Virus record (IMG/VR): IMGVR_UViG_3300008116_000027
Coordinates: 1 to 64,000 of that record
Length of the DNA stretch: 64,000 bases
Source: a virus
Direction: 5' to 3' (one strand)
This document shows, one piece after another, positions 12,138 through 40,872 of this stretch; position 1 is the stretch's first letter; every line of letters starts with the position of its first letter. The position numbers were made by a program, and so were the translations under genes. The notes under the pieces were generated by a model. That model searched no databases and was not told the DNA's origin. It saw only the letters and a list, made by a program, of their open reading frames with translations.

Positions 12138-12174
12138 ATGTATATTATAGCAAATATAGTATACTAAACACTAT

Positions 12175-12247
12175 TGGTCCATAGCTCAATCGGCAGAGCA
12201 CTGAGCTGTTAACTCAGGGGTTCCTGGTTCGAGTCCAGGTGGACCAG
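12175..12247 (+). tRNA. tRNA-Asn(GTT)
   Basis: Acceptor TGGTCCA/TGGACCA, anticodon arm CTGAG-CTGTTAA-CTCAG, GTTCGAGTC. Confidence 0.95.
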
Positions 12248-12269
12248 CATATATTACAAGGAGGTAAAT

Positions 12270-12362
12270 ATGGAACCAAATAAAATGACACCAGAAGGAT
12301 TACTTACAATTGGTGCACTTATTGTGGCTTTAGTAATTCTTTCTATTGTTATAGCATCTTAA
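12270..12362 (+). CDS. 30-aa single-TM micro-protein
   Basis: AAGGAGGT RBS; MEPNKMTPEGLLTIGALIVALVILSIVIAS; fills the gap between two tRNAs. Confidence 0.75.
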   Translation: MEPNKMTPEGLLTIGALIVALVILSIVIAS

Positions 12363-12366
12363 TTTT

Positions 12367-12438
12367 GGCTTCATCGTCTATCGGTTAGGACATCGCCCTT
12401 TCACGGCGGAAAGACGGGTTCGATTCCCGTTGGAGCTA
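12367..12438 (+). tRNA. tRNA-Glu(TTC)
   Basis: Acceptor GGCTTCA/TGGAGCT, anticodon arm TCGCC-CTTTCAC-GGCGG, GTTCGATTC. Confidence 0.93.
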
Positions 12439-12458
12439 CATTTGATATAATAGATAAT

Positions 12459-13238
12459 ATGAAAGTCTCTATGTTACATCCAGATATTTGGTATTTTGAA
12501 GATGCCATTCCAGAATCAAAAAAATTTTTATCTTTACTAGAAGACAATAAAAATATTACAAGCGTTATACCAGATTGGTCTACTTGGCTTGATTCTTTTG
12601 CTAGAGGCACAGATGAAATAATTATTAATAAACCGTTGGCCGCTGGAGAAGGCGGCGCTCCTATGGGTGTAGACAAGTTTGTTGACTGGGACATGTCAAT
12701 AAATGATTACGGCAGAATTTGGCCAAGAATAGTTCCCGACTCGGTAGTGCATAAAGAGGCTTATAAAACATTAAAGTTAATAGACATTCCATTTAAAAAA
12801 GTATTAGACTATTATTGGTCTAAAAATTCAGAGTTACCTGAACTTAAATATATTAGTAAAAATTATCTTATTAGAAAATACTCAACTGGAACATCTATGC
12901 CAATCCATGTAGATGCTAGCGGAAGAGCTGGTGCTACAGATGACGACAAAATATCTATGGATCTGGCTGCTTTGATTTACTTAAACGACGACTATACGGG
13001 CGGGGAATTAAATTTTGTAGATTTAGGCATAAAACTTAAACCATCTGCTGGAAGCATTGTAATTTTTGACGGCATAAAGCATCAGCATGAATCTACCCTA
13101 ATTACATCTGGTAACAAGATATACATTCCATTTTATATGCACACAAAATACGGTTTAATTTCCTGTTTTAGAGAACCTGTCGAAGCAGGCGGCAATCAGA
13201 CTTTTATTTCCAACCAAATACCCAGGTTGACAGAATAA
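12459..13238 (+). CDS. 2OG-Fe(II) oxygenase
   Basis: HVD...YLNDDYTGGEL.F...AGSIVIF...HES...GNK. Confidence 0.88.
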   Translation: MKVSMLHPDIWYFEDAIPESKKFLSLLEDNKNITSVIPDWSTWLDSFARGTDEIIINKPLAAGEGGAPMGVDKFVDWDMSINDYGRIWPRIVPDSVVHKEAYKTLKLIDIPFKKVLDYYWSKNSELPELKYISKNYLIRKYSTGTSMPIHVDASGRAGATDDDKISMDLAALIYLNDDYTGGELNFVDLGIKLKPSAGSIVIFDGIKHQHESTLITSGNKIYIPFYMHTKYGLISCFREPVEAGGNQTFISNQIPRLTE

Positions 13239-26525: not shown

Positions 26526-29000
26526 ATGTCAACAGTAAGAATTCAAGTAAGACGAGGTACTGCATCAGAATGGACCTCAGTAAATCCTACACTAGCTGCA
26601 GGAGAACTAGGTGTTGAAACAGACACTAGAAAAATTAAAATTGGAACTGGAAGCACTGCTTGGACTAGCCTTTCTTACATAGCAGCAGACTCACCAGCAA
26701 TTACAGAAATTGCACAAGACGCAATTGATCAAGCTCTTTCTATGGGCTCAGGTCTTACAAAGTCTTATAACGATAACACAAATACAATTTCCCTTGGCAT
26801 CGACGACTCAATTGTCGCACTTAAATCTTATGTTGACAGCCAGGTAGGTGGGTTACAAAATACAGTAACTTCAGACTATGTATTATTAGCAGATGTTGGA
26901 AATGCAGGTGGACCTGCAAAATTAGATGCTGACGGAAACTTGCTTGTTCCAAAATCAAGCATTATTATAGAAGGATCATCAGCAGATGCTCATGAAACCA
27001 CACTAACAGTATCAAATCCAACATCAGATAGAACAATCACACTTCCAGACTCATCTGGTACAGTAGCACTAACATCAGACCTTGCACCATATGCAACAAC
27101 ACAAGCATTAAATTCCGTAGTATCTTCATTGAATATTCATCAAGCAGTAAATGTTGCAACAACAGAACCGTTAGTAGCAACTTATGCTGCTGGTTCCGCT
27201 GATAACGGCAATGGAACTGGAATTGGTGCAACATTAACAATGAACTCAAATGGCACTCTAACAATAGATGGCTTACAAGCAGAAAATGGATTTAGAATAT
27301 TAGTAAAAGATCAAGCAAACTTAGTTCATAATGGTATTTATGAAGTAACAATTGCAGGATCAGCTGGAGCACCAGCCGTTTTAACTAGATCTGCAGACTA
27401 CAATAACTCAGATGTAAACACACCTCTTGATGTTGCTAAAGGCGATGTCGTTTTTGTAACAGATGGAACAGAAAATGGATATAAACAATTTTCTCAAATA
27501 TACGCAGGAACTAACGCAGACGGCTCAGTAAAAATTGGATCTGAAAATATTGACTTTACTCAAATTTCAGGAGCAGCAACAATTATAGCTGGAAATGGTA
27601 TAACTAAATCAGGAAACACAATTAGTGTTGATGCTCAAGAATTTTTAGCAACATCTACCGCATCAAGTACATATTTAACTCAAGCAGATGCAGCAAATGA
27701 CTATTTGTCACAAACAGATGCTGGGGCTACTTATTTAACTCAAGCAGATGCAGCTTTAACATATTTAAATCAAACAGACGCAAGTACGACATACCTGTCA
27801 CAAGCAGATGCAGGTACAACATACTTGTCTCAAGCAGATGCTGCAACAGATTATTTTGCTGTTACAACAGATCAAATTGAAAATGCCAATATTAAAATTG
27901 GCGCAGGAATTGCAGCAGATAAAATATCAGGAAACGCTGTAACACAAGCAGATACAGGAACTGTAACCAATACAATGCTTGCAGGATCCATTGATAATAA
28001 CAAATTATCAAACTCTACAATTTCAGGCATATCGCTTGGATCTAATTTAGAAACATTAACAATTGGAACTGGTTTAAGTGGTACATCTTACAACGGTGGA
28101 TCAGCAGTAACAATTGCAATTGATTCAACAGTTGCTACAGAGTCTTACGCAGACACCGCAGCATCAAATGCTCAAGGAGCAGCAGAAGATTACGCTGACG
28201 GACTTGCAGCAAATTACGAAGTTGCAGGAGCTGTTTCAACACACTCATCTGATACAACAAACGTACACGGAATTACAGATACAGCCCAAATTGCTCTTCT
28301 AGATGCTGCTACACAGCAATTTACAGGAGACATGGGAATTACTGGAGACTTAATTGTTGACGGTGACGTAACTGTTAATGGCGGAAGCTTTACAGCAAGC
28401 GCTACATCTATAACAATTGAAGATAATCTAGTTCAGCTTGCTCATCAAAACGCAGCAAATACCGTAGACTTAGGTCTTGTTGTAGCGTACAATGACGGCG
28501 CAGCAAAACACTCTGGTATAGTAAGAGATGTTTCTGCTAATAAATGGAAACTATTTAAAGGCGTAACAACAGAGCCTGCTACAACAGTAGACTTTACAGA
28601 AGGATCACTTGATGACCTTGAGTTAAATGAAATTAAAACAGCTGGAGTAGTATTCTCAGACGGCACACAGACCAAAGAGGGTGTTCCTTCAAGAACTCCA
28701 ATTATTTCAAAGACTGCAGACTATACATTGTCTGCGCTAACCGAGAGAGATTCATTAATTGAAGTTGACTCTTCTTCAGCAGTAACAATTACAATTCCAA
28801 CCAACTCAGCAGTTGCTTATCCAATTGGAACAACTCTAGATATTCTTGGAGTTAACACAGGACTAATCACAATCGCAGGAGATACTGGTGTAACAGTAAA
28901 TGCTACCCCAGGATTAAAGTTACGTACACAATGGTCATCCGCAACATTACTCAAGAGAGCAGAAAATTCTTGGGTAGTTTACGGCGACTTGAAATCATAA
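26526..29000 (+). CDS. long tail fibre with Mtd_N-like N-terminus and C-terminal adaptor-like domain
   Basis: RIQVRRGTASEW..NPTLAAGELGVETDT..KIG; RILVKDQ....NGIY; C-terminal LRTQWSSATLLKR...W...GDL. Confidence 0.8.
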   Translation: MSTVRIQVRRGTASEWTSVNPTLAAGELGVETDTRKIKIGTGSTAWTSLSYIAADSPAITEIAQDAIDQALSMGSGLTKSYNDNTNTISLGIDDSIVALKSYVDSQVGGLQNTVTSDYVLLADVGNAGGPAKLDADGNLLVPKSSIIIEGSSADAHETTLTVSNPTSDRTITLPDSSGTVALTSDLAPYATTQALNSVVSSLNIHQAVNVATTEPLVATYAAGSADNGNGTGIGATLTMNSNGTLTIDGLQAENGFRILVKDQANLVHNGIYEVTIAGSAGAPAVLTRSADYNNSDVNTPLDVAKGDVVFVTDGTENGYKQFSQIYAGTNADGSVKIGSENIDFTQISGAATIIAGNGITKSGNTISVDAQEFLATSTASSTYLTQADAANDYLSQTDAGATYLTQADAALTYLNQTDASTTYLSQADAGTTYLSQADAATDYFAVTTDQIENANIKIGAGIAADKISGNAVTQADTGTVTNTMLAGSIDNNKLSNSTISGISLGSNLETLTIGTGLSGTSYNGGSAVTIAIDSTVATESYADTAASNAQGAAEDYADGLAANYEVAGAVSTHSSDTTNVHGITDTAQIALLDAATQQFTGDMGITGDLIVDGDVTVNGGSFTASATSITIEDNLVQLAHQNAANTVDLGLVVAYNDGAAKHSGIVRDVSANKWKLFKGVTTEPATTVDFTEGSLDDLELNEIKTAGVVFSDGTQTKEGVPSRTPIISKTADYTLSALTERDSLIEVDSSSAVTITIPTNSAVAYPIGTTLDILGVNTGLITIAGDTGVTVNATPGLKLRTQWSSATLLKRAENSWVVYGDLKS
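27669..27857 (+). repeat. ~6 x 30-nt (10-aa, xYLxQxDAxx) coding repeat
   Basis: TYLTQADAAN DYLSQTDAGA TYLTQADAAL TYLNQTDAST TYLSQADAGT TYLSQADAAT. Confidence 0.85.
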
Positions 29001-29012
29001 GGAGAATTATAA

Positions 29013-30350
29013 ATGAGTAAGAGATCTGGTAGAAAATCCCAAGCAGCAAATGACTTTTTAGAGCCAAAACCTGTAGAAAATTTAGTAGCTACAGATGTAG
29101 GAACTTCTAGAGCATACAATGACGGAGCAGTAAATCTATCATGGGAGTTACCTGCAGGATCACCTCCAGCAACCTCTTACTCAATTACAACAACCCCAGC
29201 ATCAACAACACAAACTACATCTAATACCTCTTTTACATTTACTGGGCTATCATCAGATACAGCCTATACATTTTCAATAACTGGAAGCAATGCTGCAGGA
29301 ACTTCTGCTGCTACAACTTCTAGTTCTGTAACAGCAACTACGGTTCCTCAATCTCCACAATCAGTTTCAGCAGCTTCTCCAAACGCAAACGAAGATGTTG
29401 TTTCATGGTCAGCAGGTGCTTCTGGTGGTAAAACAATTACTAGTTATACCGTAATATCTTCAGATGGACCATCATACACAAATTCAACTTCACCAAAAAC
29501 TATTTCAGAAACAGCTGGAACTTCACAATCTTATACAGTTTATGCAATTAACGATAATGGAACATCAGTAGGAGCAACTACTGGTTCTGTTACTACAACA
29601 GCACCGTTCTTCCCACCGTTCTTCCCATATTTCCCACCGTTCTTCCCATATTTCCCACCGTTCTTCCCATTCTTCCCGTTCTTCCCACCATATTTCCCAC
29701 CATTCTTCCCATTCTTCCCGTTCTTCCCACCATATTTCCCACCGTTCTTCCCATATTTCCCACCGTTCTTCCCATTCTTCCCGTTCTTCCCACCGTTCTT
29801 CCCACCGTTCTTTCCACCAAGATTCGGTCCATATTTCCCAGCGTGTGTTGACGGAGATACTTTAATCTTAACTAGCGAAGGTCCAAAACCTGCTAGAGAG
29901 ATAAAAGTAGGAGATAAACTACTAACAGTTGATGCTTTAGGGTTAGCCGATCAACCTAACAAAACACCTCTTGAAATTAATGTTCAAGATTTGATGATAA
30001 GTAACATGGTACACACAGAAGTTACAAATGTTATAGTCTCAGACAAACAGGACAGAGTTTACTTCAATGGAAACAAAGAAGTTCAGTTTACAGAAACTCA
30101 TCCAATATTCGTAAAACGAAATAACGAATATCGTGTAGTCGAAGCAGGACTAGTACAACAAGGAGATGTTTTAATAAATATCTCAGTAGATAACTTATCT
30201 GAAACTTTAGATATGACCAAGGTAATATCAGAAGTTGAAGTGTCTAAGGTAGATAAAATAACTTTAGATTTAGCAAAAGATGTGTACACATTTAGCTGCG
30301 ATCCACATAATTGGTACTTCGCAGGAGATATATTAACACACAATAAGTAA
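29013..30350 (+). CDS. 2xFN3 + poly(Pro/Phe/Tyr) tract + C-terminal Hint domain protein
   Basis: FN3 motifs (LSW..P, TGL...TAYTF); P/F/Y tract at aa ~198-276; Hint from C278 (CVDGDT, TETHP, VY...THNK-stop). Confidence 0.88.
   Translation: MSKRSGRKSQAANDFLEPKPVENLVATDVGTSRAYNDGAVNLSWELPAGSPPATSYSITTTPASTTQTTSNTSFTFTGLSSDTAYTFSITGSNAAGTSAATTSSSVTATTVPQSPQSVSAASPNANEDVVSWSAGASGGKTITSYTVISSDGPSYTNSTSPKTISETAGTSQSYTVYAINDNGTSVGATTGSVTTTAPFFPPFFPYFPPFFPYFPPFFPFFPFFPPYFPPFFPFFPFFPPYFPPFFPYFPPFFPFFPFFPPFFPPFFPPRFGPYFPACVDGDTLILTSEGPKPAREIKVGDKLLTVDALGLADQPNKTPLEINVQDLMISNMVHTEVTNVIVSDKQDRVYFNGNKEVQFTETHPIFVKRNNEYRVVEAGLVQQGDVLINISVDNLSETLDMTKVISEVEVSKVDKITLDLAKDVYTFSCDPHNWYFAGDILTHNK
29604..29840 (+). 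repeat. PFFP/PYFP low-complexity coding repeat
   Basis: Mosaic of TTCCCACCGTTC and TTCCCATAT units encoding ~79 aa almost entirely P, F and Y. Confidence 0.95.
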
Positions 30351-30362
30351 AATAATAATCAC

Positions 30363-30388
30363 CTAAAGCCCCCAAACGGGGGCTTTAG
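30363..30388 (+). terminator. intrinsic terminator
   Basis: CTAAAGCCCCC-AAAC-GGGGGCTTTAG. Confidence 0.75.
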
Positions 30389-30393
30389 TATTC

Positions 30394-30422
30394 TTGACAG
30401 TTAATTATATATTATATATAAT
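30394..30422 (+). promoter_or_regulatory. consensus sigma70/SigA promoter for the oxygenase operon
   Basis: TTGACA-17 nt-TATAAT. Confidence 0.8.
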
Positions 30423-30446
30423 GTATACATAGTAGAAAGATAAAAT

Positions 30447-31166
30447 ATGCAAGATATTTATGATATAAACGATAATCCATGGTTTACAAAAGATAGATCA
30501 GAATCAACTTCTTTTAGGGTAAATAGATCTTTTGGTAATATTAAAGTTTTAAATCCAGGTATTGGATTAAATATTTATGAATCAGCTATTCCAAGCAGTG
30601 TTTGCGAAACATCAATTAAAACATTAGAAGATAAGCTAACAAATGGCAACATGTATAAATGGTCAGAAGCACAAGTTACGACCTCAGACAAACCAGTAAA
30701 ATCTGCAAGAGATTGCGTAGATTTTAAATTTAAACCAGAAAATCTTGGAAAAAGAAATGAAAATAATGCAGAACTTCTAGATATGCATGAATCCATTTAT
30801 AATGTATTAAAAAAATGCGTAGATGATTATTGTCAATATTGGGGAATTAATGTTGTATATTATGAAGCTTTTAATTTTGTGAAATACACCAGCCCAGGAC
30901 AACATTTTAGAGTTCATGCTGATCATGGTCCACACTATAATTGTACAGTTTCAGCTGTAATATATTTAAATGATGATTACGAGGGCGGGGAGATAGCATT
31001 TCCAAGATTAGATAAATTAGTATATAAACCAAAACGTGGTGACGTAGTAATTTTTCCATCAAACTATATATACGAACATTCTTCAGAACCAATGATTTCT
31101 GGAGATAAATACTCTGTTGTAATTATGATGGATATTAACCTATTAGGACATAAGGAGAACAATTAA
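30447..31166 (+). CDS. 2OG-Fe(II) oxygenase (prolyl 4-hydroxylase-like)
   Basis: HADHG, YLNDDYEGGEI.F, GDVVIFPSNYIYEH and SGDKYS. Confidence 0.92.
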   Translation: MQDIYDINDNPWFTKDRSESTSFRVNRSFGNIKVLNPGIGLNIYESAIPSSVCETSIKTLEDKLTNGNMYKWSEAQVTTSDKPVKSARDCVDFKFKPENLGKRNENNAELLDMHESIYNVLKKCVDDYCQYWGINVVYYEAFNFVKYTSPGQHFRVHADHGPHYNCTVSAVIYLNDDYEGGEIAFPRLDKLVYKPKRGDVVIFPSNYIYEHSSEPMISGDKYSVVIMMDINLLGHKENN

Positions 31167-31822
31167 TGAATAAACAAACTTGGTCAAGCGCAGAAGACTT
31201 AGGATCAGGAATTTGGGTATATAGAGATGTTTTAACAAAAGATTTAGATATTATTAATAGGCTAGAAACAAATTTAGATGGAAGCACTCCAGGTTGGACT
31301 TGGCAGCCAGCTTATGTTGGATATCAAGAAAGAATGCCAGAATATAGAGACTGCGTAGACTTTAAATTTAAAAAATCAGATATAGCAAATGATAAGTCTC
31401 CTATATCATTAAAAATGCAAGAATTGTGGCAAGACTGCTATGATAGGCAAGCACCAGCAGTAGAAGATTATTGTCAAAAACATAATATACATAAACTTCA
31501 ATATTGGGAAGCTTTTAATTTTATTAAATATGTTCCTGGACATCACTTCATGGAGCACCATGATCATGGATTTTCATATAATTGCACTGTATCTTTAGTT
31601 GGCTATATTAACGATGATTACGAGGGCGGAGAATTATATTTCAGATTACAAAATTTAAATATTAAACCAAAAGCTGGAGATTTATATATTTTCCCTTCAA
31701 CATATATGTATCCTCATCAAGCAAAAGTAGTTAAGTCTGGAACAAAATATTCATTAGTTACAATGTTAGATTATAGCGCAAAATTTCATACTCCAGCAAT
31801 GTACGAAGATACTGGTAATTAG
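31166..31822 (+). CDS. 2OG-Fe(II) oxygenase (prolyl 4-hydroxylase-like)
   Basis: HHDHG, YINDDYEGGELYF, IFPSTYMYPH and SGTKYS. Confidence 0.92.
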   Translation: MNKQTWSSAEDLGSGIWVYRDVLTKDLDIINRLETNLDGSTPGWTWQPAYVGYQERMPEYRDCVDFKFKKSDIANDKSPISLKMQELWQDCYDRQAPAVEDYCQKHNIHKLQYWEAFNFIKYVPGHHFMEHHDHGFSYNCTVSLVGYINDDYEGGELYFRLQNLNIKPKAGDLYIFPSTYMYPHQAKVVKSGTKYSLVTMLDYSAKFHTPAMYEDTGN

Positions 31823-32541
31823 TGTCTATATTAAAGGCATATAAAAGACATCCAAATTCTTTTATAATTGAACCTATTTCAGTAAAAAGACAATGGATGG
31901 ACGAAACTCCAGACGGTCATGCGTATAGGTGTTTTCCAGTAACAATGGCAAATACAATAGGTTGGACATTATCGTGTCCAGTGGACGTATCATTTATATG
32001 GGATGGGCAAATAGACACAACGCCAGATAGAGTTAAAATTTTATCTGGTCAAGAATATTGTTACACTGGAAGAGGCCAAGGTTCAGTAAGTTTTAATACA
32101 GGTCTTATTCTAAAATCAGAAAAACATATAAGTGTATTAAGTATTACTCCACAAAATTATTTTTATGAAGATTTTGAAGTAATGTCATCATTAATAAGTA
32201 CATCTTTTTTTAATGTTGATTTTCCATTAGCAATTAAAGTTAAAATTCCAAATAAAGAAATTATTATAAAAGCTGGCACTCCCATTGCTACAATTATTCC
32301 GATTTCTCTTACATCATTAAAAGATGAATCTATAGAAATAGAAAATTTTATAAAGCCAGAAGATTATGATGCTAAATTAAAAAGTTATGGAGATGCTGCT
32401 CAAGTAATAAATCAATCTGGACAGTGGACAGATTGGTATAGAGATGCTATTGATGAAACTGGCACATCTATTGGAGAGCATGAAACTAAAGCTTTAAAAT
32501 TAAAAGTAATAGATAATACAACAAAGGAAAATAACAATTAA
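31822..32541 (+). CDS. DUF6065-like protein
   Basis: RQWMD.T...HAYRCFP..MAN..GW and KAGTPIA.IIP motifs. Confidence 0.7.
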   Translation: MSILKAYKRHPNSFIIEPISVKRQWMDETPDGHAYRCFPVTMANTIGWTLSCPVDVSFIWDGQIDTTPDRVKILSGQEYCYTGRGQGSVSFNTGLILKSEKHISVLSITPQNYFYEDFEVMSSLISTSFFNVDFPLAIKVKIPNKEIIIKAGTPIATIIPISLTSLKDESIEIENFIKPEDYDAKLKSYGDAAQVINQSGQWTDWYRDAIDETGTSIGEHETKALKLKVIDNTTKENNN

Positions 32542-33262
32542 TATAATTAAATTTGTATCAAATAGGCCTTGGTTAAATAAAGAAAGTATTTCTAAGCCAA
32601 CAGCAGCCATAAAAGAAATACCAGAATGGTTTAGAAAGGCAGATAGATTTGCAGTTAATCCAATTACTAAAGATTATTGGAAAGGGCCAGACGGAGGCAA
32701 AGTTCCTACATGGAAGGCTTGCCCAGCTATATTTGATATATTAGGCACTGGCTATGTTCTTAAAACACCATGCGACATTAAATTTTATTTAAAAAATAAT
32801 AAAATGTCTGTTGAAATAAAAGAAGATAGGTATAAAGATTTTTGTTCTCAAAGAGACCCTATGCCACAATTTGTTCATCCAAAAGGTTACCATAAAGAAC
32901 ATTTTGCATGGTACCCAGACTGGGCAATTGAGTTGCCAGAAGGATACAGTGCTTTATACACAACCCCATTTAATAGGTTTGATTTACCATTTTTAATGAC
33001 TACTGGAATTGTAGATAATGATAAAATTAATTTACCAGGAACAATGCCATTTTTTATAATTAGAGGATTTGAAGGAGTGCTACCAGCAGGAACTCCATAT
33101 GCTCAAATAATTCCATTTAAAAGAGAAGATTGGTCATCAGAAATATTTATAGAAAATCCAAATAATTTATACAAAAAGAATCAAAAAAATAGTGATAAAT
33201 ATAGAGTAAAAGATGGTGGAGTCTATAAAAATGAAGTTTGGTCTAAAAGAACATATGAATAG
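32537..33262 (+). CDS. DUF6065-related protein with probable non-canonical ATT start
   Basis: Frame open from 32513; IPEWF, TWKACPA..D...GY..TPCD upstream of the track's ATG; TPFNR..LPF...GIVD.D and GTP.AQIIPFKREDW. Confidence 0.7.
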   Translation: MNIIKFVSNRPWLNKESISKPTAAIKEIPEWFRKADRFAVNPITKDYWKGPDGGKVPTWKACPAIFDILGTGYVLKTPCDIKFYLKNNKMSVEIKEDRYKDFCSQRDPMPQFVHPKGYHKEHFAWYPDWAIELPEGYSALYTTPFNRFDLPFLMTTGIVDNDKINLPGTMPFFIIRGFEGVLPAGTPYAQIIPFKREDWSSEIFIENPNNLYKKNQKNSDKYRVKDGGVYKNEVWSKRTYE

Positions 33263-33279
33263 AATGATATAATAAATAT

Positions 33280-33951
33280 ATGGACAATAATTTAGCAAAT
33301 GGTGCAGCAAATTGGGATAACCGTGTTTCAATAACACCACCTGGATTTTTTGGCAACAGTCCAGAGCATATTCAGGCAAGAGAAAATTTTATGACTGAAG
33401 AAGAGAGATTATTCTTATTAGAATCAGCTAAATCAATTAATGAGTGGGATAGAACCGAAACTCATTATAATGATGACGGAATTGTAATTTATGACTCTTC
33501 TTATTGGGATAACCGTGTTGCATCAAGACCAATTCTTGATAAAATAAATCCAGAGATATCTGTTGTAATTGAAAAACTTGTTGAAAGATTAAAAGTTGAA
33601 GTTGATAATCATTTTAATGTTGATGCTAAACCTACAAGTCCAGCAATTGTTAGATGGATGAAAGGATATAGACAAGAGCCACATGCAGACAAACAGTTGC
33701 AAAATGGAGAGCCAAATGATTTTCCTTGGTATGATCTTGCTGGATTATTTTATTTAAATGATGACTACGAAGGCGGAGAACTTTATTTTATGCATCATGA
33801 TGTACAATTTAAACCAAAACCTGGAGCAGCATATTTCTTCCCAGGAGATGTAGGATACAGTCACGGAGTAAAAGAAATAACAAATGGAATTAGATATGTT
33901 ATTCCATTTTTTTGGACAATTTTAAAACATACTGGTGATAAGCAGCCATGA
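33280..33951 (+). CDS. 2OG-Fe(II) oxygenase
   Basis: HAD, YLNDDYEGGELYF, FFPGD..YSHGV and GIRY. Confidence 0.92.
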   Translation: MDNNLANGAANWDNRVSITPPGFFGNSPEHIQARENFMTEEERLFLLESAKSINEWDRTETHYNDDGIVIYDSSYWDNRVASRPILDKINPEISVVIEKLVERLKVEVDNHFNVDAKPTSPAIVRWMKGYRQEPHADKQLQNGEPNDFPWYDLAGLFYLNDDYEGGELYFMHHDVQFKPKPGAAYFFPGDVGYSHGVKEITNGIRYVIPFFWTILKHTGDKQP

Positions 33952-34742
33952 CAGTAGATTACACAGAAATATATCCTAAAATATATGTATACCACAATTC
34001 AATAAAAGATCCTAATTTTTTTTTAAAGCAGTCTTTAAATCAATATAAAATTGGTTGGAAGGATTGGTCATTTTTTGGAAGATATATAGGAATTGGCGGG
34101 AAAACAGCTAAATATAAAAAATTTCCAACCTGGGAAGAATTTAAAGAGTCTATAGATTTACAAGAAAATCAACAACTAAGTTTAGAGTATATTGATAAGT
34201 TTTATCACAACACTAAACATTATATAGATAATAATTTAATTACTTTAAACGAATGGGCATACGAGTCTTCCTCTTTATGTGAATATGATATAGCAAAAGG
34301 ACATGACGGAGAATTCTCTATGGCCTATCACTCAGACTTTATTGTGCCAGAAAAAAATTGGCCAGGATTAAAATTTGAAATATCAGTAACAACTTATCTT
34401 AATGATGATTACGATGACGGTGAGTTGTGTTTTGCTATAGATAACGATTTATTTTCTTATAAACCTAAAGCTGGAGATATGATTATTTTTCCATCAAGAC
34501 CACCATATTTTCATGGAGTAAGAAAACATAAAAATAAAAATAGATATATGATTAGAGGATTTTGGCTATCTTCTTACGAAGGAAGTCTTGAATGGCATGA
34601 GGGATTGCTTAAATACGGTAAAGAAGAGTGGGAAAAAATGCAAAGAATCGAACTAGAAAAATATACCATAGAAAATATACCTTCTCCATCAGAATACGCA
34701 TCTTCTTATTCTAGAGATAATGAAAGATTAAATATAAAATGA
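33948..34742 (+). CDS. 2OG-Fe(II) oxygenase
   Basis: YHSD, YLNDDYDDGE, IFPSRPPYFHGV and RYMIR. Confidence 0.9.
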   Translation: MTVDYTEIYPKIYVYHNSIKDPNFFLKQSLNQYKIGWKDWSFFGRYIGIGGKTAKYKKFPTWEEFKESIDLQENQQLSLEYIDKFYHNTKHYIDNNLITLNEWAYESSSLCEYDIAKGHDGEFSMAYHSDFIVPEKNWPGLKFEISVTTYLNDDYDDGELCFAIDNDLFSYKPKAGDMIIFPSRPPYFHGVRKHKNKNRYMIRGFWLSSYEGSLEWHEGLLKYGKEEWEKMQRIELEKYTIENIPSPSEYASSYSRDNERLNIK

Positions 34743-35548
34743 AAAATTTAGAATTTATAACAATATATCCTGGAGTAAACGTATACAGAAATGTTTTTCA
34801 GGATGTAAATGATTTTTTAGAAAAAGCAAAAAAATGTGAAAAATGGGAGCAATGGTATACATTTGGATCAATGCTTGCTCTTCAAGAAATGCCAATTAAA
34901 TTTGATTCATTTCCAAATAAAGATGAGTATATGACATCAAGAAAATGGGACGACGGTACAGAAAATTCAAAAATAAGAGGACAGCTAGCAGAAGAAGTAG
35001 CAGAAATATTTTATGATGTAACAAGTCATTATATAAAAATGCATCCAGAGCATTCATTACAAAATTGGATAAAAAACCCCGCTTCTGTTAATAGATACAA
35101 TGATGGATCAAGTATATCTGATAACTATTCAATGAACTACCATACAGACTATAATCAAGAAATTGAAGATTCAAGTGGTATTAAATTTGGAATTACTACA
35201 ACATTTTATTTAAATGATGACTATAAAGATGGAGAAATTTGTTTTAAAATTAATGATCATTTTATTTCTCATAAACCACAAAAGGGAGACGTAATAGTAT
35301 TTCCATCTAAGCCACCATACTATCATGCAGTTAGAAAATCTAGTGGAACAGATAGATATATGATTAGATCATTTTGGCAATTTGAGTATGAAGGATCAAA
35401 AGAATGGCTAGAAAATCAAGAAAAATACGGCAAAGATGTTTGGGCGTCTATGGAAGAAAAAAGAATTAGCAAAGAAAGATTTATGTATCAAATTGAAGGA
35501 GAGTCTATGCATAAATTTTTTGGAAAAGATAATGGAATTAAACTATGA
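34739..35548 (+). CDS. 2OG-Fe(II) oxygenase
   Basis: YHTD, YLNDDYKDGE, VFPSKPPYYHAV and RYMIR. Confidence 0.9.
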   Translation: MKNLEFITIYPGVNVYRNVFQDVNDFLEKAKKCEKWEQWYTFGSMLALQEMPIKFDSFPNKDEYMTSRKWDDGTENSKIRGQLAEEVAEIFYDVTSHYIKMHPEHSLQNWIKNPASVNRYNDGSSISDNYSMNYHTDYNQEIEDSSGIKFGITTTFYLNDDYKDGEICFKINDHFISHKPQKGDVIVFPSKPPYYHAVRKSSGTDRYMIRSFWQFEYEGSKEWLENQEKYGKDVWASMEEKRISKERFMYQIEGESMHKFFGKDNGIKL

Positions 35549-36387
35549 GACAATGTACTTGTGGAAGATCTAATGCGTATCCATATTGTGATGGAACTCA
35601 TAAAAAGAAAAAGGAGCCAATAATGAAAGACGGCATGATAGATGTTTTAGATAAAAGTAAATTTATTGTTTTGCAAGACGAAGAAGTTCCAGAAAATAAA
35701 GCTGGTGTACTTGGAGTCTATACCAATAAAATTGTAGAAATACCCAACTTTATTGACCCAGCAATAGTTCCCAAGATGATTCATTTTTTTGAAAATTGTA
35801 ATGTTGAGTGGGGAGATATTGCGTTTTACGGATCTTCTGGAAAAGGTATTTTAACTGACTCTGAAACAATGAAAAAATTTGGATTGCCAGATGAATTTTT
35901 TGATAAGTTAAAAAATAAATATCAGGAAACAGTAGAACTGGTATTCGGCAGAGAAGTTAGAGCAAATACTTCTCATGCACAAAAATGGGATGTTGGAGGA
36001 TTTGCAAGCCCGCATTCAGATAATTCAGATAATGAAGGAAAACCTAATGCTTTTGAAATAAATAAGTATGTTGGAATTTTATACTTAAACGATGACTATG
36101 AGGGTGGGGAATTATATTTTTGCGATAAAGATAATGAGATGAATCCATATCTATCATTTAAACCAAATGTATATTCTTATTATGTATTTCCTGGAGGGTA
36201 TGAAAATATTCACGGAGTATCAGAAATTACTAAAGGAACAAGATACACTATGGTATCATTTTGGGATTTTGCAGATTTAGTATATGACGATGCTACTTTA
36301 GAAAAATGGAAAGAAGAAGAAAAGCAAGTTAGAATTGAACAGGCTGCACAAAAAGAAGAATGGCTAAAAGGAAATAAATATGCCTAA
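35545..36387 (+). CDS. CDGSH [2Fe-2S] motif fused to a 2OG-Fe(II) oxygenase
   Basis: CTCGRSNAYPYCDGTH; then HSD, YLNDDYEGGELYF, HGV and GTRY. Confidence 0.88.
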   Translation: MRQCTCGRSNAYPYCDGTHKKKKEPIMKDGMIDVLDKSKFIVLQDEEVPENKAGVLGVYTNKIVEIPNFIDPAIVPKMIHFFENCNVEWGDIAFYGSSGKGILTDSETMKKFGLPDEFFDKLKNKYQETVELVFGREVRANTSHAQKWDVGGFASPHSDNSDNEGKPNAFEINKYVGILYLNDDYEGGELYFCDKDNEMNPYLSFKPNVYSYYVFPGGYENIHGVSEITKGTRYTMVSFWDFADLVYDDATLEKWKEEEKQVRIEQAAQKEEWLKGNKYA

Positions 36388-36976
36388 TGTTCAAAGATTT
36401 GAAAAAATATCATATTATAAAAACGTTATAGACGATCCTAAATCACTAATCAATTTAATAGAGGAGTCAGATAAAAATTTAACGTCAGATACTAGTATCC
36501 CAAGTTGGCAAGAATGGAATGCTAGCGGAGATAGTCCTTATCAATTTGGTTATCAAAAAAGATTTAACAATAATGTTGAAGCTGATACTTCTCTAGAAAT
36601 TAAAAAAATAAATATGACATTAAAAAATGCTATTGTAGATGCATCTAATGATTATTCAAAAGAATATGGTATAAATATAGGAACATTAATGCCTTTATCT
36701 ATAAGTAAGTATTCCACTGGAAAATCTATGGGCCCTCATGTAGACGATTATAATAATGGAGATGACCCAAACATATCAGTAGTTTTATATTTAAATGATA
36801 ATTATGACGGTGGTGAGATTAATTTCCCAAATCAAAACATAACAATAAAACCAGAAGCAGGAAGCATTGTGATATTCCCATCTGTAGAGCCATATTACCA
36901 CGAATCCCTACCAGTTATTTCTGGTATTAAATATATGTCTCCTGGATTTTGGCGTAAAGTAGACAAGGTGGTATAA
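36380..36976 (+). CDS. 2OG-Fe(II) oxygenase
   Basis: HVD, YLNDNYDGGEINF, IFPSVEPYYHES and SGIKY. Confidence 0.92.
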   Translation: MPNVQRFEKISYYKNVIDDPKSLINLIEESDKNLTSDTSIPSWQEWNASGDSPYQFGYQKRFNNNVEADTSLEIKKINMTLKNAIVDASNDYSKEYGINIGTLMPLSISKYSTGKSMGPHVDDYNNGDDPNISVVLYLNDNYDGGEINFPNQNITIKPEAGSIVIFPSVEPYYHESLPVISGIKYMSPGFWRKVDKVV

Positions 36977-36983
36977 TTTAAAA

Positions 36984-38087
36984 ATGGCCACTATTCCAAA
37001 TGATAAAAACTGGAGATTCCCAGACTACACAGATTCACCAGATATACCAAGAGATATTTCTTATTTAGCTGCAGATATTTCAGAGTATATAGATTCTCAC
37101 CCAGGTCCACAAGGTGAGCAGGGGGATACTGGACCAGCAGGACCAGCAAACGTTTTATCAGTCGGAACAGTAACAACTGGACCAGCAGAGTCTTCAGCCT
37201 CAGTTACAATTACTGGTACATCACCAGAGCAAACAATCAATTTTACAATTCCTCGTGGCGATACTGGAGCAACTGGTGCAACTGGCGCACAAGGTATTCA
37301 GGGAATACAGGGCATACAAGGAGAACAAGGAATTCAAGGTATACAAGGAGAAAAGGGCGACAAGGGCGATACTGGTGCAACTGGCGCAACAGGACCTCAA
37401 GGTATACAAGGCGAAAAAGGTGATGATGGTGACCAGGGCATACAAGGAGAACAAGGAACTGGCGTTAATATATTAGGTTCTTATGCTAATCTTACAGCAC
37501 TACAGACAGCACATCCAACTGGAAGCTCTGGAGATGCATATTTAATAGATAATGATTTATATGTTTGGTCTCAATCAACATCTTCATGGATAAACGTTGG
37601 AACAATAAGAGGCCCACAAGGTATTCAAGGAGAGCATGGCATACAGGGTCCAAAAGGCGATAAGGGAGATACTGGCGATACTGGAGCAACTGGTGCACAA
37701 GGACCGCAAGGCCCACAAGGCGAACCAGGATTAACAGGAGCAGACGGAGCAGACGGAGCAGACGGAGCAGACGGTCAAGACCTTACATCAGTATTTACAA
37801 TATCACAAAAATCTACATCTTACACATTAGTGGCATCAGATCTTGGAAAATTAATAGAAATGTCAAATGGCGGAGATCTAATTATACCAACAGATTCAGA
37901 AATATTTGATATCGGATCTACTATAGATATAATTCAAACTGGATCATCGCAAGTAACAATAGGCGGAGATACTGGTGTAACAGTAAACTCAACCCCAGGA
38001 TTAAAATTAAGAGCACAGTGGTCATCTGCAACATTAATTAAAAGAGGAAATAATCTTTGGGTTGCTGTAGGCGATTTGAGCGTCTAA
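36984..38087 (+). CDS. collagen-like fibre with C-terminal adaptor-like domain
   Basis: Gly-X-Y runs (GPQ, GIQ, GAT, GAD); C-terminal ~90 aa paralogous to that of 26526-29000. Confidence 0.88.
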   Translation: MATIPNDKNWRFPDYTDSPDIPRDISYLAADISEYIDSHPGPQGEQGDTGPAGPANVLSVGTVTTGPAESSASVTITGTSPEQTINFTIPRGDTGATGATGAQGIQGIQGIQGEQGIQGIQGEKGDKGDTGATGATGPQGIQGEKGDDGDQGIQGEQGTGVNILGSYANLTALQTAHPTGSSGDAYLIDNDLYVWSQSTSSWINVGTIRGPQGIQGEHGIQGPKGDKGDTGDTGATGAQGPQGPQGEPGLTGADGADGADGADGQDLTSVFTISQKSTSYTLVASDLGKLIEMSNGGDLIIPTDSEIFDIGSTIDIIQTGSSQVTIGGDTGVTVNSTPGLKLRAQWSSATLIKRGNNLWVAVGDLSV

Positions 38088-38088
38088 A

Positions 38089-39003
38089 ATGCCAAAAAGA
38101 AATCGTGGTAGATCTGGTACAAGAAAAACAAATGTTCCAAATTATTTAGGACAAACTTCTACCGACACGCAAACATCTTTAACAAATCTTGGATTTGTTT
38201 ATATATATAATACAACCGATACTACAACAGAGTCTGATAATTTAAAAATATATTCACAAAGTATTTCTTCTGGTCAATTATATACTTTGGGATCACAAGT
38301 TTCAGTTGAATATTATGTGTATGTTGCGCCGTTCTTCCCACCGTTCTTTCCATTTTTCCCACCCTATTTCCCACCGTTCTTTCCATTTTTCCCACCCTAT
38401 TTCCCACCGTTCTTTCCATTTTTCCCACCCTATTTCCCACCGTTCTTTCCATTTTTCCCACCAAGATTTGCCCCAGTGGGTCCTTATTTCCCAGCATGCC
38501 TAGATGAAAACACTTTAGTGTTAACTAACGAAGGAATGAAGCCAGCTAAAGATATTAAGGTCGGGGATACATTATTAACAGTTGATGCATTAGGATTGTC
38601 TAATCAACCAAATGCAACCCCACTTGAAATTAATGTTAAAAATCTTAATATAACAAACTTAAGATCTACACAGGTTACAAATGTAATTGTTTCTGATAAA
38701 ACAGATAGAGTCTATTTTAATGAAAATACAGAAATTCAATTTACTGAAACTCACCCAATATTCGTAAAACGAAATAATGAATATCGTGTAGTAGAAGCGG
38801 GATCAGTTCAAGAGGGAGATATCATTATAATTATAAATATAAGTCTCTTAAAAGAACAAATAAATATATCAGAAGTAATAACTGAAACTGTAATAAATAA
38901 AGTTGAAAAGAAAACTTTAGATGTTGCAAAAAATGTATATACGTTTAGCTGTGATCCATATAATTGGTATTTTGCTGGAAATATATTAACTCACAATAAG
39001 TAG
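38089..39003 (+). CDS. PASTA-like + poly(Pro/Phe/Tyr) tract + C-terminal Hint domain protein
   Basis: VPNYLGQT......L.NLGF...SQS..SG....GSQV; tract at aa ~81-135; Hint from C137 (CLDENT, TETHP, THNK-stop). Confidence 0.85.
   Translation: MPKRNRGRSGTRKTNVPNYLGQTSTDTQTSLTNLGFVYIYNTTDTTTESDNLKIYSQSISSGQLYTLGSQVSVEYYVYVAPFFPPFFPFFPPYFPPFFPFFPPYFPPFFPFFPPYFPPFFPFFPPRFAPVGPYFPACLDENTLVLTNEGMKPAKDIKVGDTLLTVDALGLSNQPNATPLEINVKNLNITNLRSTQVTNVIVSDKTDRVYFNENTEIQFTETHPIFVKRNNEYRVVEAGSVQEGDIIIIINISLLKEQINISEVITETVINKVEKKTLDVAKNVYTFSCDPYNWYFAGNILTHNK
38329..38463 (+). repeat. 33-nt tandem repeat encoding FPPFFPFFPPY (~4 units)
   Basis: TTCCCACCGTTCTTTCCATTTTTCCCACCCTAT repeated exactly. Confidence 0.95.
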
Positions 39004-39021: not shown

Positions 39022-40872
39022 ATGTCATATAAACTTAAAATATTAAAAGACCATCCTATTGGATTTTGGCAACTTGATGATGTGGCTACAAATCCTACTT
39101 TTGACTTTACTGATATTTTAGAAAAATATGATACCTATCAAGATTTATTAGATGCATATGAAGACTATGCAAATATAAACTATTTTGCAGAAGATAGTTC
39201 TGGATGCTCTAATACTGGACTGTATGTCGGAACTTTTGATACTAATAAAAAATATTTTCCTTTATCTCCAGGAGGAAGATATTCTATAGATATAACATCA
39301 TCTAAAAGTATAGATTTCCCAATAATTAATAGTTACTATAAAAATAATGCACCTGGCGGTTTTGCTACAAGAGATTATGGAGATAATGATTTTACACTAG
39401 AATGCTGGATCTACCCAGAAATAACCACTAATTCTTTAACAACAATATTTGCCGATAGTAGTAAAAATGTTGGCATATTTTACCAAAATGGAAATATCAT
39501 TTTTAAATTAGATCAAGAACTTTTAGAATATACATTACCAATTATAAATAAATCAATGCATATAGTTGCAGTATATTTAGTAACAGAAGCTCATTTATAT
39601 ATAGATGGCAAACTATCCATTAGTAAAACAATATCTTCTAATCCATTTACCAATACTGAAATTTTATTAACCTCTGGGCCCACATCAAATTTAAACGATA
39701 AATTTTTAATAGACGATATAGCAGTATATAGATATGGTCTATCTAATATAAAAATATTAGATCATTATTATAATGATAGCTATACAAATCCATCTCAAAT
39801 AATACAAGTAGACAATGGAGAAATTTTTGAATTTTACGATACAGATATAAGTAAAGTTTTTTCTTATTCATATCCTTTAAATAGGCCCTGGCAAGAAGTC
39901 GTGACAGAAGATTTATATTATGACCAAACAAATCAATATATACAAATTAAAAAAAGTGGCGTACAAGAGTCTAAGTCTATTGTAATAGAAGATACAATAT
40001 ACTTACCAGCAGCAACTTCTATAAATTCTTCAAAAATAGATTGGTTTGGAGATAATGGAATTACTGTTGAAACTAGTATTAATGGAGAAGATTATGAATT
40101 GTGTATCAACGGACAGTCTATACCACAATACACCTCATTAAATTTTAACAATAGTAGAGTTTTAAATATAAAAATAACAATAGGCTCAACGGACATTTCT
40201 AAATATTTACCAAAATTATATAATTTAAATATTAGTTTTTATAATAATCAAATTATGTATTCAAAAAATGGAACAAGCTATTTGTCAAAAATTGAAAATA
40301 AAGACTATTATTTAGGAGAAAATAAATACCCAATTTTATCTAGGGATCCAAGAAATGGAATATTGTGTCCAAGTAACTCTGGATTTAATATTAATTTATT
40401 TCAATTAAAACAATCAATAGAATTTTTTTATACACCATATAGTTTAAATAAAGGTCTACTAATTAGCTCAATTATAGATGAAGACGGGGCAGCCAGCGAA
40501 TATTCATGGAATACAGATGGATCAATTAATCAAACTAACATAGAGTCTATTTATGTCAATGGTATAGATGTTTCTCTAGAAGATGACATATCTAATATAT
40601 TTACATTAAACGATATACATCACGTTGTGATTAATTTTACAGACCCTATATATGGGCTAGCAACAATCAACTACAAGTCATCTGGTTCAACAAAAGCCCT
40701 ATATCAATATATGTCATTTTACCAGAATTCATTAAGTTATAATACTATAATTAATCATTATCGTTTATATACCTCTAGAGACCTATATCAAACAAGTTAT
40801 TCTTCCATGTTTATGTCAGAAAACTCAGTTAATCTATATAATAATGACTGGATTGTGGTACAAAACTCATAA
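39022..40872 (+). CDS. LamG/ConA-like domain virion protein
   Basis: DHPIGFWQLD, DFTLECW, HIVAVY...LYIDG and IDDIAVYRYGL motifs. Confidence 0.75.
   Translation: MSYKLKILKDHPIGFWQLDDVATNPTFDFTDILEKYDTYQDLLDAYEDYANINYFAEDSSGCSNTGLYVGTFDTNKKYFPLSPGGRYSIDITSSKSIDFPIINSYYKNNAPGGFATRDYGDNDFTLECWIYPEITTNSLTTIFADSSKNVGIFYQNGNIIFKLDQELLEYTLPIINKSMHIVAVYLVTEAHLYIDGKLSISKTISSNPFTNTEILLTSGPTSNLNDKFLIDDIAVYRYGLSNIKILDHYYNDSYTNPSQIIQVDNGEIFEFYDTDISKVFSYSYPLNRPWQEVVTEDLYYDQTNQYIQIKKSGVQESKSIVIEDTIYLPAATSINSSKIDWFGDNGITVETSINGEDYELCINGQSIPQYTSLNFNNSRVLNIKITIGSTDISKYLPKLYNLNISFYNNQIMYSKNGTSYLSKIENKDYYLGENKYPILSRDPRNGILCPSNSGFNINLFQLKQSIEFFYTPYSLNKGLLISSIIDEDGAASEYSWNTDGSINQTNIESIYVNGIDVSLEDDISNIFTLNDIHHVVINFTDPIYGLATINYKSSGSTKALYQYMSFYQNSLSYNTIINHYRLYTSRDLYQTSYSSMFMSENSVNLYNNDWIVVQNS

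Follow-up and report, generated by a model that had tools for sequence, protein, structure and literature searches.

Fibre-tip proteins with aromatic/proline tracts and terminal Hint domains beside a tandem dioxygenase array in a freshwater phage

In a 64,000-nucleotide stretch of viral DNA (IMG/VR record IMGVR_UViG_3300008116_000027, positions 1 to 64,000; hereafter the window), two fibre genes are each followed by a gene for a putative fibre-tip protein that ends in a tract of proline, phenylalanine and tyrosine (P/F/Y) and a Hint domain, and a battery of seven 2-oxoglutarate (2OG)-Fe(II) oxygenases and two DUF6065-type proteins is encoded between the two pairs. Our best reading of this arrangement, held tentatively and placed a little short of an even chance, is that the aromatic/proline tail of the fibre-tip protein would be freed by self-cleavage of the bacterial intein-like (BIL) type and would be the main substrate of the adjacent battery. 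All elements lie on the + strand (Table 1), and the order given in an earlier note on this DNA, namely fibre A, an FN3-tract-Hint protein, a terminator, a promoter, seven dioxygenases plus two DUF6065-type genes, fibre B and a PASTA-tract-Hint protein, was recovered in full.

Tract, Hint domain and fibre as a fibre-tip module

Both tracts open with A-PFFPPFFP and close with GPYFPA|C, in agreement with the earlier note, and the Cys is the first residue (Cys1) of the Hint domain. Both tracts reported there were present, at 80 and 56 amino acids (aa) rather than the ~79 and ~55 aa given. Tract 1 consists of 37 F, 34 P, 6 Y and 3 other residues (77/80 P/F/Y) and tract 2 includes 24 P, 23 F and 4 Y, and the repeat units are irregular, with 3- and 4-residue steps mixed. 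At the DNA level, tract 1 contains tandem repeats with a period of 21/63, and tract 2 contains 3.9 perfect copies of a 33-nucleotide (nt) repeat. An in-frame CCA (Pro) insertion variant at position 29717 in tract 1 was found in contigs of 2 public runs, and metagenome assemblies break at both tracts; together, these observations fit rapid length variation by slippage. Judged from the sequence, the tracts are far beyond chance, lying in frame between folded domains and being conserved as peptide in hundreds of homologues.

N-terminal to the tract, tip protein 1 has 5 K/R within its first 20 residues and one clear FN3 domain (E 5e-13). Only this one of the two FN3 domains claimed earlier stood, the second Ig-like domain giving only weak SusE and Tissue_fac matches. 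The PASTA domain of tip protein 2 scored over the cut-off (E 1.7e-5).

For comparison, ~230 loci from five scans of viral contigs were used (L numbers below). Among Hint homologues an aromatic/proline low-complexity repeat always precedes Cys1, and its chemistry varies by lineage (PFFP/PYFP, PHFP, GFFAPP, FGFTP, FSPFG, YSFTP, FAPVFS and the Cys-containing FCPFFP). All Hint paralogues of a phage have one tract type at 20/21 distinct multi-Hint loci, and at the single exception the final 25 residues are still identical. Cys residues occur inside the repeat (FCPFFPNFCP) in the tracts of L170, L194 and L195.

The two Hint domains, both 168 aa as described earlier, are 75% identical. In an AlphaFold2 (AF2) model, residues 137-304 of tip protein 2 were predicted to adopt the horseshoe-shaped beta fold of Hint domains (predicted local distance difference test, pLDDT, 75-90), and Foldseek matched this model at probability 1.00 best to the C. 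thermocellum BIL 2LWY and the Tetrahymena BIL2 6Y75, then to mini-inteins and Hedgehog, with 1AT0 and 6TYY also being structural matches. Curated sequence models placed Hint under their cut-offs (PF14890, 30.7 and 27.5 bits vs 35.8; TIGR01445, 19.3 and 17.9 bits vs 24.5; PF01079, 17.2 vs 29.7), and membership of the Hint family therefore rests on fold and motifs. Cys1 is invariant (13/13 in the alignment of the window's lineage and 22/22 in distant relatives), and T-x-x-H (TETH) and the terminal His-Asn are invariant within the window's lineage, the block-B His often being Gln in other lineages. The distant-relative alignment was too diverse for a pattern scan, and three sub-alignments were used. 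Both copies end His-Asn-Lys-stop, with no +1 nucleophile. A survey of 100 distinct copies from viral contigs found His-Asn (HN) in 97/100, HN-K-stop in 85/100 and a +1 Ser in only 3, and a Lys lies at +1 to +3 after HN in 97/97 of the HN-ending relatives. An exhaustive HMMER search returned 255 Hint cluster representatives, nearly all of which have the Hint at the extreme C-terminus.

Since a +1 nucleophile is lacking, the domain is classed, on its motifs and modelled fold, as a type-A BIL-like domain, which it resembles in Hint fold, Cys1, block-B TxxH and C-terminal His-Asn (compared with 2LWY). The chemistry expected in common would be an N-terminal thioester and Asn cyclisation, with cleavage dominant. 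In type-A BILs cleavage dominates, and splicing is possible via the free amine of the C-flank (PMC4031507, with Amitai 2003, Dassa 2004 and Aranko 2013 as cited there). In contrast with these, the domain here occupies the extreme C-terminus of a phage fibre-tip protein, with one conserved Lys as C-flank and the aromatic/proline repeat always before it. On this basis self-cleavage of the Hint domain is predicted to be likely. A canonical mobile intein was ruled out, as the domain is terminal, has a C-flank of one Lys and comprises 168 aa without an endonuclease. In a literature search, phage papers mentioning a 'Hint domain' dealt with terminase inteins; the Hint family ending in His-Asn-Lys is a large, domesticated, uncharacterised BIL family in phage structural proteins.

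Two variants were also observed. At L041:680-1291, a 203-aa open reading frame (ORF) that follows a small Hint gene gives a weak Hint-module match (E 0.0018), has no N-terminal Cys and may be a degenerate Hint. In the FN3-FGFTP tract proteins P0200 and P0207 (615 and 609 aa), a Hint-like domain starts with Ser and ends with His-Asp, followed by a ~80-aa extension, and may be inactivated or repurposed.

Comparable terminal domains are known from other systems. The Hedgehog C-terminal domain and the Tetrahymena BUBL BIL likewise involve a terminal Hint that turns the preceding residue into a thioester for transfer or cleavage, but here there is neither a sterol-recognition region nor a ubiquitin-like N-extein. 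In the self-cleaving C-terminal intramolecular chaperones of phage tail spikes and fibres (K1F endosialidase and T5 pb1; Peptidase_S74), a fibre C-terminal domain also removes itself and the mature fibre ends at the cleavage site, but by Ser-Lys dyad proteolysis, as opposed to the Hint thioester and Asn cyclisation expected here, and the folds are unrelated. Dickeya phage AD1 gp108 (L147:3017-4456) and Erwinia pEa_SNUABM jumbo phages encode a structural protein of the virion that is collagen-like and has a related Hint at its C-terminus (27-29% identity to the window Hint over all 168 residues). AD1 gp108 differs in its canonical +1 Thr, its 10-aa C-flank and its lack of an aromatic/proline tract. 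Of seven neighbouring genes retrieved, none has an annotation that names a dioxygenase, and no proteomics on gp108 was found in a literature search; it belongs to a cultured phage and is a possible experimental entry point.

Fibres A and B have in common a 97-aa C-terminal domain (53% identity, E 4e-24), and the G-X-Y repeats of fibre B match PF01391 in two stretches. Fibre A also contains 30/60-nt tandem repeats (window 27668-27843) that encode a T-Y-L-x-Q-x-D-A motif. Across the loci compared, a gene with this fibre C-terminal domain is nearly always directly upstream of the tract protein, the pair occurring in >200 loci on freshwater phage contigs. In 8 loci (L072, L078, L111, L113, L120, L123, L125 and L126) fibre and tip are fused in a single ORF, laid out as fibre C-terminal domain, Thr/Pro(/Ala) linkers, 4-Cys modules, a short PFFP motif and Hint, which suggests that the tip protein continues the fibre distally. 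These data indicate that the conserved fibre-tip module is real, and we consider it fairly likely that the tip protein docks on the fibre's C-terminal domain. The fusion ORFs L072:3424-5943, L123:3408-6401 and L111:8016-10196 hold five to seven of the small 4-Cys modules.

A search with the FN3 N-terminal region alone revealed Hint-less homologues that are at least as common as the Hint-bearing ones. On long contigs, 22 of them carry a Cys-rich tail after the tract, 8 a short tail or none and 4 a tail of another kind, and in the second tip gene of L027:10492-10941, L033:11633-12079 and L034:17340-17786 a 44-aa six-Cys tail replaces the Hint. The C-terminal cap is thus interchangeable, being a Hint, a Cys-rich tail or nothing, and the Hint is dispensable; the mature unit would therefore most simply be the N-terminal domains plus the tract, with the Hint as a self-removing cap. 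In relatives, including many of L152-L225, the Cys-rich tails comprise 8-45 aa and contain 2-8 Cys, and here too a Cys comes immediately after the tract. One speculation, suggested by the frequency of Cys-rich tails, is that the tract forms a multi-chain polyproline-II-type assembly stapled at its end.

The dioxygenase array and tract chemistry

Of 57 arrays whose upstream neighbour is visible, 50 start immediately downstream of a Hint-tract gene, frequently with a spacer of only 8-26 nt. The window's lineage instead has a terminator and a consensus promoter at this position, both kept in 10/10 distinct relatives, with compensatory changes in the terminator stem. In a sample picked by the FN3 region, and thus independent of the Hint, an array follows 41/42 Pro-rich tracts (14 with a Hint, 27 without) compared to 2/13 Pro-poor tracts. 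When the loci were grouped into 24 clusters at 60% Hint identity, arrays were present in 11/11 Pro-rich and 2/13 Pro-poor clusters, and only one PF13640 gene was present in a complete genome of 109 kb whose tracts are of the YSFTP type. The array therefore tracks proline-rich tract chemistry, not the Hint, and the co-occurrence that the earlier note had proposed as a check was borne out.

Other genes were found in the same place, Pro-poor lineages having there either a sulfotransferase gene or three paralogues of an unassigned family. A sulfotransferase gene directly follows the Hint gene in other lineages (L090:3929-5872, L053:5343-6074 and L054:10158-10871), and in the Pro-rich lineage L090-L092 a sulfotransferase, an Asp/Asn beta-hydroxylase and a possible methyltransferase follow it, echoing the hydroxylase-plus-sulfotransferase operons of Iyer et al. 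2010. That other protein-modifying enzymes take this position in other lineages supports the idea of the tract as a substrate. In FGFTP lineages (L041:11330-13322 and homologues), the Hint gene is followed by three paralogues of 215-236 aa with no Pfam match. A protein atlas suggests that they are PF13759-like (2OG-FeII_Oxy_5-like; score 0.96), which is a lead only, and hhalign of this three-paralogue family against the window's oxygenases was negative (probability 0.2).

All seven oxygenases of the window score over the PF13640 gathering score (37-51 bits vs 27) and keep the HxD...H motif, with H120, D122 and H174 invariant across the seven paralogues. The oxygenase profile, when compared with the PDB, matches P3H1, PiuC, Bacillus anthracis P4H (prolyl 4-hydroxylase) and LH3. 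Viral and bacterial hydroxylases that act on repeat proteins include the PBCV-1 P4H on Pro-rich repeats, the Bacillus anthracis P4H and the Mimivirus collagen lysyl hydroxylase. As in those cases, P4H-clan 2OG oxygenases are encoded here beside low-complexity Pro-rich or collagen-like structural proteins, but there are seven paralogues, not one, and the candidate motif would be Pro-Pro flanked by Phe/Tyr and lacking X-Pro-Gly. Oxygenase 6 has an iron-sulfur motif of the CDGSH type at its N-terminus (35545-35640; zf-CDGSH, 29.0 bits, against a cut-off of 29.5 bits), and its counterpart is ~26 aa shorter in some relatives (254 vs 280 aa).

The two DUF6065-like genes claimed earlier fared differently. 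The first matches PF19541; the second resembles the first by BLASTP (E 9e-6) but has no Pfam match and a non-canonical start. It had been listed as 152 aa, whereas the frame is open for 242 codons from ~32537, and the protein has 242 aa in relatives. No ATG, GTG or TTG start is present (32525-32545), and translation probably begins at an ATT preceded by AAGGA. An AF2 model of the DUF6065 protein has a predicted dUTPase-like fold (VIA Z 11.3, root-mean-square deviation 2.8 over 112 aligned residues; dUTPases account for all of the top 14 matches), and Cys37 is invariant in the DUF6065 alignment. DUF6065 has no sequence relative in the PDB, hhalign of DUF6065 against the window's oxygenases was negative, and a literature search found no paper mentioning the name.

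An array of this kind has been described before. Iyer, Abhiman, de Souza and Aravind (2010, Nucleic Acids Research; PMC2938197) reported in cyanophage Syn9 a tandem dioxygenase array (gp41-gp54) with a dUTPase-fold Cys protein and interpreted it as serving metabolite biosynthesis. Syn9 gp43 matches the DUF6065 profile (E 1.4e-14), a link for which the profile was required, as tblastn of DUF6065 against isolated phages gave nothing at 1e-3. In both phages many tandem 2OG-Fe dioxygenases and a dUTPase-fold protein with a conserved Cys lie directly downstream of fibre genes, and the Syn9-type arrangement of >=5 tandem 2OG-Fe dioxygenases plus a dUTPase-fold protein is found here as a co-directional block of 7 + 2 genes. 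In contrast with Syn9, which has tryptophan halogenases and a JmjC/MINA member, no such Pfam match was found in 30447-36976, all seven oxygenases are PF13640 (P4H-like), and they are bracketed by Pro-Phe tract proteins. By its gene content, the battery itself is not new but a Syn9-type tandem dioxygenase array, known since 2010, and the earlier view of a new modification system does not apply to it.

Table 1. Elements of the fibre-tip and dioxygenase module (positions in the window)
Feature	Position	Strand	Evidence or remarks
Fibre A (824 aa)	26526..29000	+	Mtd_N N-terminus, Pfam E 1.8e-15
Fibre A C-terminal domain, residues 726-822	28701-28991	+	Common to fibre B
Tip protein 1 (445 aa): basic N-terminus, FN3 + Ig-like domain, P/F/Y tract, Hint	29013..30350	+	
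P/F/Y tract 1 (80 aa, residues 198-277)	29604..29843	+	Ends GPYFPA
Hint domain 1 (168 aa)	29844..30347	+	Cys1, TETH, terminal His-Asn-Lys; weak PF14890 and TIGR01445 matches
Intrinsic terminator-like hairpin, 11-bp stem, 3' of tip gene 1	30363..30388	+	
Consensus sigma-70-type promoter upstream of enzyme array	30394..30422	+	TTGACA-17 nt-TATAAT, 12/12 matches
2OG-Fe(II) oxygenase 1 (239 aa)	30447..31166	+	PF13640, E 4.9e-13
2OG-Fe(II) oxygenase 2 (218 aa)	31166..31822	+	PF13640, E 8.7e-12
DUF6065 protein (239 aa), predicted dUTPase-like fold, conserved Cys	31822..32541	+	PF19541, 106.5 bits
Second DUF6065-like gene, ~242 open codons	32537..33262	+	BLASTP E 9e-6 to first copy
2OG-Fe(II) oxygenase 3 (223 aa)	33280..33951	+	PF13640, E 5.5e-9
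2OG-Fe(II) oxygenase 4 (264 aa)	33948..34742	+	PF13640, E 3.2e-9; absent from many close relatives
2OG-Fe(II) oxygenase 5 (269 aa)	34739..35548	+	PF13640, E 4.5e-9
2OG-Fe(II) oxygenase 6 (280 aa), N-terminal CDGSH-type motif	35545..36387	+	PF13640, E 5.5e-9
2OG-Fe(II) oxygenase 7 (198 aa)	36380..36976	+	PF13640, E 2.2e-13
Collagen-like fibre B (367 aa); shared C-terminal domain = residues 273-365	36984..38087	+	PF01391, E 1e-21
Tip protein 2 (304 aa): basic N-terminus, PASTA, P/F/Y tract, Hint	38089..39003	+	
P/F/Y tract 2 (56 aa)	38329..38496	+	51 of 56 = P/F/Y
Hint domain 2 (168 aa)	38497..39000	+	AF2 pLDDT 75-90 over Hint part

Proposed mechanism and alternatives

In the mechanism that we favour, each fibre would end in the common ~100-aa domain, followed by a tip protein composed of a basic N-terminal peptide, a putative cell-surface-binding domain (FN3/Ig-like or PASTA), the aromatic/proline tail and the Hint. 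The Hint would turn the Ala|Cys1 peptide bond into a thioester and remove itself or, by an alternative type-A BIL route, would leave its single C-terminal Lys on the tract; by either route the P/F/Y polymer would become the free distal tail of the fibre tip. The battery of seven 2OG dioxygenases resembling collagen prolyl 4-hydroxylase, prolyl 3-hydroxylase and lysyl hydroxylase (P4H/P3H/LH), together with the two dUTPase-fold DUF6065 proteins, would modify this tail, chiefly by prolyl hydroxylation and perhaps by hydroxylation of aromatic residues as well, with the collagen-like fibre as a possible second substrate. The tract is the likeliest candidate substrate on the available sequence evidence, although we would put this, too, at somewhat less than even.

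Several observations weigh against this mechanism. The residue before Cys1 is Pro in 39/100 relatives, although not in the window, and a Pro in this position is unfavourable for intein N-cleavage. No P4H is known to act on Phe-flanked prolines, and in the AF2 model of the 304-aa tip protein 2 the PASTA part and the tract were without usable structure (pLDDT 25-45). Small arrays are also present in some Pro-poor lineages (L049, L051, L188 and L192). The Hint tree contains 4-5 supported independent contrasts, of which ~2-3 run in the expected direction and almost none in the opposite one (sign test p 0.25-0.5), and because these contrasts are few, shared ancestry is still a possible cause: the array-tract signal is inseparable from it, and conserved synteny within one clade could give the same pattern. 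In the window's lineage the array is set off by a terminator and a host-type promoter of its own, and its timing may differ from that of the fibre genes, while at least 3 further PF13640 genes are found in the genome beyond the module. Finally, a search of 23 Syn9 proteins (gp32-gp40, gp43-gp54 and gp60-gp61) with the Hint hidden Markov model found no Hint, and inspection of Syn9 gp33 and gp35-gp40 found no P/F tract, implying that arrays beside fibre genes work without this substrate.

Two other accounts of the battery, each of which we consider unlikely and to a similar degree, draw on part of this evidence. The enzymes might instead modify other structural proteins of the module, above all the collagen-like fibre B by Lys/Pro hydroxylation in G-X-Y, with the tract serving only as a linker, stiff or sticky. 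Hydroxylation of G-X-Y repeats has a parallel in the collagen hydroxylases of bacteria and giant viruses, and the enzyme profile does match collagen P3H1, P4H and the lysyl hydroxylase LH3. Moreover, fibre B lies directly after the array and contains G-D-K, G-E-K and G-P-K triplets, a collagen-like gene follows 14/38 arrays with a visible downstream neighbour, and Iyer et al. 2010 predicted collagen-like and tail-collar proteins as substrates of co-encoded hydroxylases and sulfotransferases (PMC2938197). However, many arrays have no collagen-like gene within 10 kb (e.g., L056, L057, L065, L067 and L084-L092), L022 has an array but no fibre B, lineages that lack arrays (L058, L070 and L098-L101) have collagen-like genes equally, and the presence of an array follows the chemistry of the tract. 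Alternatively, the array could be a Syn9-type cassette for metabolites or secondary metabolites, or a host-takeover island, that is unrelated to virion proteins and sits in an inherited insertion hot-spot by the fibre genes. The same composition in Syn9 and its interpretation there, the consensus host-type promoter that follows the terminator, the extra PF13640 genes elsewhere in the genome and the paucity of contrasts with which to exclude inheritance are all consistent with such a cassette. Conversely, the ORFs of the window scanned against Pfam include no non-ribosomal peptide synthetase, halogenase, transporter or other small-molecule enzyme, the 8-26-nt junctions in many lineages suggest co-transcription with the tract gene, the association with Pro-rich tracts persists across changes of the C-terminal cap, and the closest solved relatives of the oxygenases are protein hydroxylases.

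The remaining alternatives concern the fate of the tract. The Hint might act as a ligase, its thioester being resolved by its own Lys, a fibre Lys or a host cell-wall amine held in place by PASTA or FN3 to give a covalent link in a sortase- or BUBL-like manner, a proposal that covers the Hint step only and is compatible with the mechanism favoured above. PASTA domains bind peptidoglycan, and one is present in the same protein as Hint 2; the Lys after HN is found in every HN-ending relative, the Tetrahymena BUBL BIL2 (6Y75) is among the nearest structures, and type-A BILs can ligate via a free amine (PMC4031507). Homologues that lack a Hint but have the same N-terminal domains, tracts and arrays are no less common, which means that ligation is not a requirement of the family. 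A further objection is that thioesters hydrolyse, while virions must last long in lake water. We therefore regard a ligase as distinctly improbable, and of the two outcomes envisaged earlier, a tract exposed or one ligated by Hint cleavage, simple self-removal is favoured, whereas an essential ligation step is not. A bolder version, in which the tail is a hydroxylated phage 'extensin' polymer whose latent Hint thioester would pass to the conserved Lys or to a host cell-wall amine presented by PASTA/FN3, resulting in covalent, irreversible adsorption, seems very improbable. Least credible of all, to the point of being negligible, is the earlier suggestion of a precursor like those of ribosomally synthesised and post-translationally modified peptides (RiPPs), with multiple cores cut into small PPFF-type peptides after modification. 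The PPFF units do resemble antamanide and cyclolinopeptide A, and one oxygenase has a sub-threshold YhhC-family match (16.7 vs a 150-bit cut-off), but this is all that speaks for it. A Pfam scan found no protease, macrocyclase, leader peptide or recognition element in the window's module, the repeat units are irregular, and the tract is part of a multidomain protein of 300-445 aa whose gene keeps synteny with tail-fibre genes and in some loci is fused to them.

Genome context and implications

The window is included in a 76.9-kb IMG/VR viral contig that is ~71% complete and encodes siphovirus-like morphogenesis genes (portal, protease, major capsid protein and a 2127-aa tape measure). The capsid and portal proteins are 56-59% identical to those of Streptomyces siphophages, and lake and freshwater metagenomes of >10 studies contain near-identical DNA; from these similarities, the phage probably belongs to a large siphovirus-like freshwater clade with an actinobacterial host. 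Against isolated phages, Megablast of the 10-kb module returned nothing beyond a chance match of 39 nt. Some metatranscriptome contigs are identical to portions of fibre A and Hint 1 but were not counted as expression, since DNA may be present in an RNA library. Distant from the fibre module, two PF13640 oxygenase genes on opposite strands surround tRNA-Asn and tRNA-Glu (window 11424-13238), one of them also having a weak Tet_JBP match, and another PF13640 gene lies at ~67.8 kb of the contig. Between the second Hint gene and the portal, a 616-aa LamG/concanavalin-like protein is encoded at window 39022-40872, in an order kept in close relatives.

Phage tandem dioxygenase arrays have been known since 2010. 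Here they adjoin a concrete and readily expressed candidate substrate, the Pro/Phe/Tyr polymer of 50-150 residues in a fibre-tip protein, and among hundreds of contigs from lake phages the presence of an array follows the proline content of this polymer. Hydroxylation of the tract, if it occurs, would represent a new protein polymer chemistry in viruses, analogous to the maturation of collagen and extensin, and would provide a function for DUF6065 and Syn9 gp43-type proteins. The His-Asn-Lys Hint family, with its strictly conserved Lys, could also serve protein engineering. Given how abundant such phages are in freshwater, adsorption to a major group of bacterioplankton is probably shaped by this module.

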